From Escherichia coli (GTDB lineage: Bacteria; Pseudomonadota; Gammaproteobacteria; Enterobacterales; Enterobacteriaceae): a stretch of 64,000 bases of DNA. This document shows, in pieces, positions 59,243 to 60,197 of the stretch. The DNA lies in assembly GCF_003790525.1 (NCBI RefSeq), contig NZ_CP033633.1. One strand, 5' to 3'. Numbering within the stretch: position 1 is the first letter of the stretch; the number at the start of each line of letters is the position of its first letter. The notes beneath the pieces were generated by a model. It was not told where the DNA came from. It saw only the letters and a list, made by a program, of their open reading frames with translations, and did no database searches. Both the position numbers and the translations under genes were made by a program.

Positions 59243-59605
59243 ATGATATTGTCTGTTTTTATAACGGTAATTTCAGGCCATGACAAGCCGCAGCCGTCAG
59301 GCTGCCTACTCGATTTGATTTGCTGCTTCAATAAGTTAACTAAAAAACAGGCATGGACAGAGCTTAATCATAAATGGAATGATAATTTTTTCATTCGCTA
59401 TGATAAAATAAGACGTAAAAGGACTTACACGGTAAGTTATGGAGAGAAGCGTTGGCTTATCATATCTTTGATGCTAACGCTTTGCAAAAATGCCCGTTTA
59501 TTTTTACTGGTTGAACCAACTGTAGGCATTGATATTCAGTACAGAATGATGTTATGGGAACTGATAAATAAGATCACCGCTGACGGGAAAAAAGGCATTT
59601 ATTAA
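59243..59605 (+). pseudogene. mcbF: truncated ABC-transporter ATPase gene (McbF-like 3' fragment), 5' end replaced by IS91
   Basis: C-terminal half has ABC signature-like VSYGEKRW and Walker B LFLLVEPTVGID; no Walker A; N-terminal 50 residues look non-native. Confidence 0.45.
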
Positions 59606-59633
59606 AGAAGTTATGGGAACAGGGGACTGACAC

Positions 59634-60197
59634 ATGGATATAATAGAAAAAAGAATCACAAAACGACACCTCAGTGAAAGTGAATTATCAGGTGTAAATT
59701 ATTACAATTGTATATTTGAACGAATACAGCTTGACAACTTTAACTTTCGCGATTGTGAGTTCGAAAAATGTCGCTTCGTAAACTGCTCAATAAAGAATTT
59801 AAAACTTAATTTTTTTAAACTTATTGACTGTGAATTCAAAGATTGTTTATTACAAGGAGTAAATGCAGCAGACATTATGTTTCCCTGTACTTTTTCTCTT
59901 GTAAATTGTGATTTGAGATTTGTTGATTTTATTAGTTTACGGTTACAGAAATCTGTTTTTTTATCCAGTCGCTTCCGTGATTGTTTATTTGAGGAAACAG
60001 ACCTTCGTAAATCTGATTTTACTGGTTCGGAGTTTAATAATACAGAGTTCAGACATTCTGATTTGTCTCACTGTGATTTTTCAATGACAGAAGGTCTCGA
60101 TATAAATCCTGAGATAAACAGGATCTTATCTATAAAGATACCACAGGAAGCAGGTTTAAAAATACTTAAACGAATGGGAGTGGTTGTAGGGGGATGA
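59634..60197 (+). CDS. mcbG: pentapeptide-repeat microcin B17 immunity protein McbG
   Basis: 187 aa; tandem pentapeptide repeats (NFRDCEFEKCRFVNCSIKNLKLNFFKLIDCEFKDC...); matches McbG as I recall it; AT-rich like the mcb operon. Confidence 0.75.
   Translation: MDIIEKRITKRHLSESELSGVNYYNCIFERIQLDNFNFRDCEFEKCRFVNCSIKNLKLNFFKLIDCEFKDCLLQGVNAADIMFPCTFSLVNCDLRFVDFISLRLQKSVFLSSRFRDCLFEETDLRKSDFTGSEFNNTEFRHSDLSHCDFSMTEGLDINPEINRILSIKIPQEAGLKILKRMGVVVGG

Follow-up and report, generated by a model that had tools for sequence, protein, structure and literature searches.

In the stretch of Escherichia coli DNA studied here (64,000 nucleotides, hereafter the window), an intact gene for the microcin B17 (MccB17) immunity protein McbG stands alone on a poultry I-complex plasmid. 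On balance we judge it probable that the gene came there through insertion of IS91 into mcbF followed by one-ended transposition, and that it would be protective if transcribed. Orphan immunity genes allow survival of a competitor's toxin without the cost of producing it, and their spread testifies to the importance of bacteriocin warfare in the gut. The locus provides an example, resolved to the base pair, in which an IS91 insertion and a probable one-ended transposition have put mcbG on a widely disseminated poultry backbone. A stand-alone mcbG beside an mcbF fragment has already been reported (PMC10926693) and the arrangement is common in public genomes; McbG alone causes a measurable but small drop in ciprofloxacin susceptibility, and both the phenomenon and these activities have been published. 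What is added here is the base-pair anatomy of the locus, together with circumstantial evidence for one-ended transposition by IS91.

Both open reading frames named in the initial annotation, of 120 and 187 amino acids, are present on the plus strand (Table 1). The longer, which had been read as an intact mcbG, is indeed full-length and free of internal stops, and its product matches the McbG of pMRE600-1 at 186 of 187 residues, I108V being the sole substitution. Inactivating changes relative to the functional gene had been named as grounds for doubting the assignment, and none was found: V108 is likewise found in the McbG of pCh102, a chicken plasmid whose mcb operon is intact (again 186/187), so that it represents a natural polymorphism and not damage. 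Pfam assigns the Pentapeptide (PF00805) and Pentapeptide_4 (PF13599) families to the protein, and the closest solved structures in the PDB are AlbG (a 'McbG-like protein') and QnrB1. The best model reaches 51.7 bits against the NCBIfam Qnr equivalog cutoff of 240, and scores to all Qnr subfamily models are likewise far under their cutoffs, which is why we regard the protein as McbG rather than as a Qnr; the public-database label for the product is only 'pentapeptide repeat-containing protein'. The substitutions in mcbG are too few to demonstrate purifying selection.

Table 1. Features of the mcbG locus and its borders, in window coordinates.
Feature	Position	Strand	Remarks
CTTG target tetranucleotide	57480-57483	+	Plasmid backbone; adjoins the oriIS end of IS91
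IS91, complete isoform	57484-59312	-	1829 bp; boundaries from hundreds of IS91 copies; ends aligned with loci L003 and L004
tnpA of IS91	57671-58859	-	NCBIfam NF033538, 282 bits against a cutoff of 125; frameshifted
orf121 of IS91	58859-59224	-	121 aa; stop overlaps the tnpA start by 1 nt
Chimeric ORF	59243-59605	+	120 aa; 23 codons from the IS91 terIS end, McbF residues 93-185, short out-of-frame tail
mcbF relic	59313-59633	+	mcbF nt 278-556 fused to nt 694-732
Sigma-70-like site	59354-59383	+	TGGACA-18-AATGAT, 9/12, TG-extended; inside the mcbF relic; weak candidate promoter
Shine-Dalgarno of mcbG	7 nt 5' of ATG		GGGGA; retained, same as in the pMccB17 operon
mcbG	59634-60197	+	187 aa; pentapeptide-repeat microcin B17 immunity protein; intact; GC 32%
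Native mcb flank	60198-60363	+	166 bp 3' of mcbG; GC 55%
IS1414 (IS256 family)	60364-61678	-	Embedded astA/EAST1; ends the mcb-derived DNA at 60363

The host replicon is a conjugative E. coli plasmid of the I complex (IncK2/Z-type), belonging to a mainly poultry-associated lineage. The window is a sibling of pPK8275-145kb (NZ_CP080166.1; IncK2/Z, MPF_I), to which it is 99.99% identical over 55685-64000; identity falls to 96% over part of the tra region, and the Tn3/IS26/blaTEM-1 insert of that plasmid is missing from the window. That the rest of the mcb operon has been lost, as the initial annotation held, is borne out by both records, since neither mcbA-E nor any other mcb DNA was found in the 64-kb window or in the complete NZ_CP080166.1, its closest relative. 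With toxin and biosynthesis genes absent from the replicon, as covered by the window and this near-identical complete record, mcbG is an orphan immunity gene. It is preceded only by a relic of mcbF and no longer lies directly downstream of mcbF in an mcbABCDEFG operon, which leaves the identity of the protein unaffected.

The intact operon of pMRE600-1 (locus L001; mcbF 6728-7459, mcbG 7463-8026) served as the reference. Window positions 59309-59591 align with 7001-7283 of this locus at 99.3% identity and 59590-60363 with 7419-8192 at 99.6%, matches that, as alignments, far exceed chance; mcbF homology proper begins at 59313, corresponding to mcbF nt 278. The relic had been described as a 5'-truncated mcbF-like fragment, and the truncation stands, although further damage had gone unnoted, namely a chimeric start, an internal deletion and a change in Walker B. 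The first 70 nt of the 120-aa ORF (59243-59312) are IS91 terIS-end sequence. The deletion removes 137 bp at 59591/59592 (L001 7284-7420) at an A-run microhomology and shifts the frame, with the result that the relic ORF ends 28 nt before the mcbG ATG instead of the 3 nt of intact mcbF, and translational coupling between the two genes is therefore lost. Walker A of McbF was lost along with the 92 missing codons, in Walker B the Asp has become Val (T for A at 59511), and ABC ATPase profiles match the relic below threshold only. To judge from its sequence, the mcbF relic is dead.

Directly upstream, where IS91 had been annotated, a full-length element adjoins the relic. Its oriIS is the low-coordinate end (ATCGATAGG...) and its terIS the high-coordinate end (...CCTACTCG), which gives the plus-strand layout CTTG/ATCGATAGG…(oriIS)…(terIS)…CCTACTCG/ATTTGATTTG, with slashes marking junctions. 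IS91 is described as inserting with oriIS adjoining 5'-CTTG or 5'-GTTC, with 5'-CTCG cleavage at terIS and without target duplication (PMC13181058); in the window terIS ends in CTCG, oriIS adjoins CTTG and a target duplication is absent. The orf121-tnpA organisation described in the same paper is also present, with an HUH/Y2 transposase gene and a TGATG overlap at 58857-58861. Compared with an intact 395-aa copy (locus L015), tnpA carries a 1-bp insertion at 58824, after which the native frame ends at 16 codons, and PGAP labels the gene 'frameshifted' in the near-identical record. This copy thus lacks the intact transposase of an autonomous element; in siblings that share the junction, the 395-aa TnpA is uninterrupted. 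In the published IS91 model, 1-10% of events fail to terminate at terIS and instead mobilise the neighbouring DNA in a one-ended fashion, the terIS side being the side that is carried (PMC13181058).

Alignment to the intact mcb operon had been proposed as a means of locating the breakpoint, and places it at mcbF nt 278, right after CTTG. Where intact mcbF reads GGTTCTTG/ATTTGATTTG (with more context, …GGAGGTTCTTG/ATTTGATTTG…), the window reads ...CCTACTCG/ATTTGATTTG, and the retained mcbF starts exactly 3' of this CTTG (nt 274-277 in the intact gene). A random breakpoint would fall directly after CTTG or GTTC with a chance of about 0.8%, and the position reads as the footprint of canonical IS91 integration into mcbF. 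Simple insertion predicts the 5' part of mcbF ahead of oriIS, where the window instead has plasmid backbone (…GTGTGCTTCTTG); the empty backbone site in the related I-complex plasmids L005-L007 reads …GCTTCTTG/CGTGCTCTCAGGG… (GCTTCTTG/CGTGCTC). Because oriIS is now preceded by backbone, its flank must have been swapped subsequent to the insertion, with no change at the terIS-mcbF junction. The statement that IS91 replaces everything upstream is consequently right in that the rest of the operon is absent, but simple replacement does not describe an insertion into mcbF with a later exchange of the oriIS flank.

A megablast of PLSDB with positions 58700-60500 as the query returned the whole arrangement in 14 plasmids, most of those with a recorded source being from chickens. 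Many further E. coli plasmids of about 55-95 kb (some larger) match only 59309-60363 and carry intact mcbABCDEFG; the window's mcbG differs from theirs in being on an I-complex plasmid, these plasmids being IncF-typed where typing was retrieved, which applies to pMRE600-1 as the sole one checked. Among 5426 complete E. coli genomes, 135 contain mcb DNA, plasmid-borne in all, with at least 80% of the operon in 100 of them, and the junction is present in 16, most of them from chicken, chicken meat or black kite and one from a human or food animal. The exact 120-aa chimeric product was found in 980 blocks of a public assembly collection, and ten assemblies containing that very ORF were sampled, of which nine have an identical McbG. 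It is frameshifted in the tenth (locus L021, 6392-7079; GCA_028598205.1), where a frameshift after about residue 60 splits mcbG into ORFs of 75 and 136 aa, representing either real decay or an assembly error. The arrangement is common and clonal in origin, and all junction-bearing copies go back to a single event and could have spread by plasmid hitchhiking.

Related forms of the locus place the events in the window in context. The IncK2/Z plasmid L011 (CP070395.1), from chicken meat, has an identical terIS-mcbF junction, is without the 137-bp deletion and IS1414, and carries an IS1 at L001 7314-7323, inside the interval that is deleted in the window; its oriIS adjoins GTTC inside an IS3-family element. 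The 137-bp deletion may reflect imprecise loss of such an IS1. A single terIS-mcbF junction thus occurs in two plasmid lineages, each with its own canonical oriIS flank. Plasmid pGF60-A keeps only IS1/mcbF' (from L001 7317)-mcbG. An independent event is seen in STEC17-183 (L012, NZ_CP075654.1, 340-4143), in which a 90%-identical IS91 lies in mcbF in the opposite orientation, adjoining it at L001 6884 (mcbF nt 157) in an mcb variant of 96.7% identity. Across L011, pGF60-A and L012, mcbG is open over 187 codons with 1-9 substitutions, the nine being in L012. Neighbours in L012 include an immunity gene of the colicin E1 family and a gene for a colicin-like pore-forming protein that, at 170 aa, falls short of full colicin length. 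About 2.5 kb 3' of the orphan mcbG in L011 (8900-9391) lie an HNH-endonuclease fragment and a bacteriocin immunity gene, the latter perhaps another immunity gene lacking its toxin within this IS-rich stretch.

A promoter reaching mcbG from the IS91 end had been named as a point to check, and the result is divided: one weak site lies inside the relic, whereas the IS91 genes, and the published Porf121 promoter, point away from mcbG. The weak site is the only sigma-70-like site upstream of and facing mcbG in a consensus scan; matches of this kind come up often in this AT-rich region, with seven found against 2.8±1.7 expected in shuffles. When mcbG alone is expressed from pBAD under arabinose induction, the MIC of MccB17 rises more than 26-fold (37-fold in the text of that paper), that of ciprofloxacin 4-8-fold and that of albicidin 4-5-fold (PMC7897471), and a vector with mcbG only is cited in PMC6795089 as lowering quinolone sensitivity 2-8-fold. 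The immunity provided by mcbG alone is partial, and only partial immunity is to be expected without McbEF (reviewed in PMC6722960). The potential for microcin protection and reduced quinolone susceptibility put forward in the initial annotation agrees with these pBAD-mcbG data and is a prediction for the window. In two natural MccB17-resistant E. coli, nothing more of the operon accompanies mcbG than an mcbF 'orthologue', the pair being 'flanked by a transposase sequence', which Telhig et al. 2024 read as a transfer of immunity without the cluster (PMC10926693).

How the oriIS flank came to be exchanged can be weighed from the junctions and their relatives. The mcbF'-mcbG cargo sits beyond terIS (…CTCG) and is contiguous with it, oriIS lies at a new canonical target, and the 13 PLSDB records in which IS91 occupies this backbone site all carry the mcbG cargo; IS91 alone at the backbone CTTG, which would read terIS followed by CGTGCTCTC, was found in no PLSDB record. 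Together with the second lineage, these observations favour one-ended transposition into the backbone. The suggestion that one-ended transposition fits the junction therefore holds in its geometry (terIS-side cargo, CTTG breakpoint, oriIS at a backbone CTTG) and falls short of proof, the far end being gone. The same structure and function would also result if two IS91 copies, one within mcbF and another already resident in the backbone, had undergone homologous recombination, or if a cointegrate had been resolved, a route that we consider rather unlikely. Copies of IS91 abound on E. coli plasmids (an IS91-dominated query matched 1877 PLSDB records), and a resident copy would also have a canonical target at oriIS, so the CTTG and GTTC flanks cannot tell the two routes apart. 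The backbone continuation CGTGCTCTCAGGGCAC that one-ended transposition predicts at the far end is absent from the window, from the complete NZ_CP080166.1 and from ten sibling loci, and it is this missing end of the putative transposed segment that keeps recombination in play. Set against recombination, besides the lack of any PLSDB plasmid with IS91 alone at the backbone site, are the IS91 copies of the window and L011, which differ by 8 evenly spread SNPs and two indels with no mosaic block (unrelated copies differ by about 30 SNPs), and the reciprocal product, in which the mcbF 5' part would be joined through CTTG to oriIS and which no PLSDB record spans (chimeric 800-nt query). In that last search a 15-nt extension in CP049615.1, a record without mcb DNA, was rejected as chance target-site similarity.

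An IS91 integrated into mcbF of an mcb operon at CTTG, a step that is legible in the junction itself, and the mcb DNA now on its terIS side consists of the truncated 3' portion of mcbF (decayed further since), the whole of mcbG and 166 bp of flanking native sequence. Under one-ended transposition, failure of termination at terIS would then have allowed IS91 to carry mcbF'-mcbG to the CTTG of the I-complex backbone by a rolling-circle mechanism, so that a non-producer plasmid acquired its immunity gene from a producer, and the far end of the segment would later have been erased by IS1414 and other rearrangements. If transcribed, McbG would be expected, from published experiments on the same protein, to bind DNA gyrase and free it from MccB17, and the host would gain partial-to-strong protection from competitors that produce MccB17 and a small increase, 4-8-fold, in ciprofloxacin MIC, while spared the expense of toxin synthesis. 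More tentatively, the locus may exemplify a natural export of immunity by IS91 in one-ended fashion ('immunity gain'), re-targeted at least twice (to the backbone CTTG and to GTTC in an IS3-family element), through which a poultry lineage would resist MccB17 producers and hold a slight fluoroquinolone edge; our confidence in this wider interpretation is limited.

Whether mcbG does anything for its host is a separate matter. It could be a silent relic, an untranscribed leftover of a degraded operon that confers nothing and is kept by a young and successful plasmid lineage, and the consensus scan, in which no convincing promoter facing mcbG was found, is in line with this. So are the visible decay of mcbF (the deletion and Walker B mutation here, IS1 in L011), the broken mcbG of one relative, the single origin of all copies and the number of mutations, which is too low for selection to be detected. 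Yet mcbG has survived whole through no fewer than four rearrangements close to it in related plasmids (IS91, IS1, the 137-bp deletion and IS1414), and is also intact both in the IS1-bounded GF60 form and beside the independent IS91 insertion of the STEC plasmid. Moreover, the two natural isolates of Telhig et al. are resistant with no more than mcbG and an mcbF fragment, and orphan immunity genes are widespread, and widely maintained, on E. coli plasmids (PMC12546727). Taken together, we think it somewhat improbable that the gene is silent. A further possibility is that mcbG is retained mainly as a low-level, Qnr-like protection against fluoroquinolones under antibiotic use in poultry, rather than as microcin immunity. 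The 4-8-fold ciprofloxacin effect and the predominance of chicken hosts could be read in this way, but that effect lies far below the more than 26-fold effect on MccB17 and was measured under induction, the protein misses the Qnr family threshold by a wide margin, and intact MccB17 operons circulate in chickens (pCh102), which places the cognate toxin in the niche. We regard this explanation as highly unlikely, and a gene that would act as microcin immunity if transcribed remains our preferred reading.

Compared with known systems, the gene resembles mcbG of the pMccB17 mcbABCDEFG operon in its 186 of 187 residues, its length, its Shine-Dalgarno sequence and its 3' flank, with V108 itself known from an intact operon, and differs in being detached from mcbA-E, a functional mcbF, the operon promoters and the McbEF export pump. 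Strains C4743 and C4747 of Telhig et al. 2024 (PMC10926693), compared by description, share mcbG with an mcbF fragment, the absence of biosynthetic genes and transposase flanks, whereas IS91 and the breakpoint are not named there. As in one-ended units of the IS91, IS1294, IS801 and ISCR type, the cargo lies beyond terIS (CTCG), oriIS is at CTTG or GTTC and there is no target duplication; the window differs from IS91-type one-ended units in its frameshifted tnpA and in that the distal end is not preserved, which is why we infer the one-ended event in the window. McbG shares with Qnr, AlbG and MfpA a fold family and a general mode of action, the rescue of poisoned gyrase, but its sequence similarity to them is distant and below every Qnr cutoff, and its protection is poison-specific, being far stronger against MccB17 than against ciprofloxacin. 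Like the orphan colicin and microcin immunity genes surveyed in PMC12546727, it provides immunity without toxin, and the same truncation recurs in numerous plasmids belonging to a cluster without a producer, although the main text of that survey does not mention B17 or mcbG.

To the right, a simple insertion of IS1414 3' of mcbG was considered and rejected, as its target is not duplicated and the sequence to its right shows no relation to the DNA downstream of mcb; given the lack of a target-site duplication, we take IS1414 to mark a rearrangement junction rather than a simple insertion. The astA gene embedded in it (60778-60891, minus strand) encodes the EAST1 enterotoxin in a 38-aa variant, MPSTQYIRRPASSYASCIWCATACASCHGRTTRPSLAT. 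Beyond lie a gene for a small PerC-family/ANR-like regulator (61665-61946, minus strand) and, divergent from it, one for a YdeO/GadX-like AraC-family regulator (61964-62764, plus strand), which scores 206 bits to the YdeO model, below its cutoff. The idea that this AraC-family gene is an allele of the one beside the relatives' empty site was ruled out, the two being only 32% identical. Past the AraC-family gene, sibling plasmids carry an IS3-family element and a 1165-aa autotransporter, and the PerC/ANR-like, AraC-family and autotransporter region resembles a virulence-regulator islet, here carried by a poultry plasmid.

Several observations concern the wider plasmid. In NZ_CP080166.1 (42247-43766; L008 30248-31767), the acyltransferase flank that lies upstream of mcbA in pMRE600-1 is found 167 bp from the IS that follows mcbG in pMRE600-1, and the pair lies 34 kb from the orphan mcbG. 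It could be the trace of an older mcb locus in situ, but we draw no inference from an apparent mcb-shaped hole in this plasmid, since the acyltransferase flank is not linked to mcb in pCh102. The immunity genes for colicin M and colicin B, cmi and cbi, are annotated in the same plasmid (59675-61663; L008 47676-49664), with neither cma nor cba in its PLSDB gene table, which omits pseudogenes, and they may be further orphan immunity genes. On the other side of IS91, a backbone serine acetyltransferase gene (55358-55944) lies upstream of a ProQ/FinO-family gene and is annotated as 'frameshifted' in the near-identical record.
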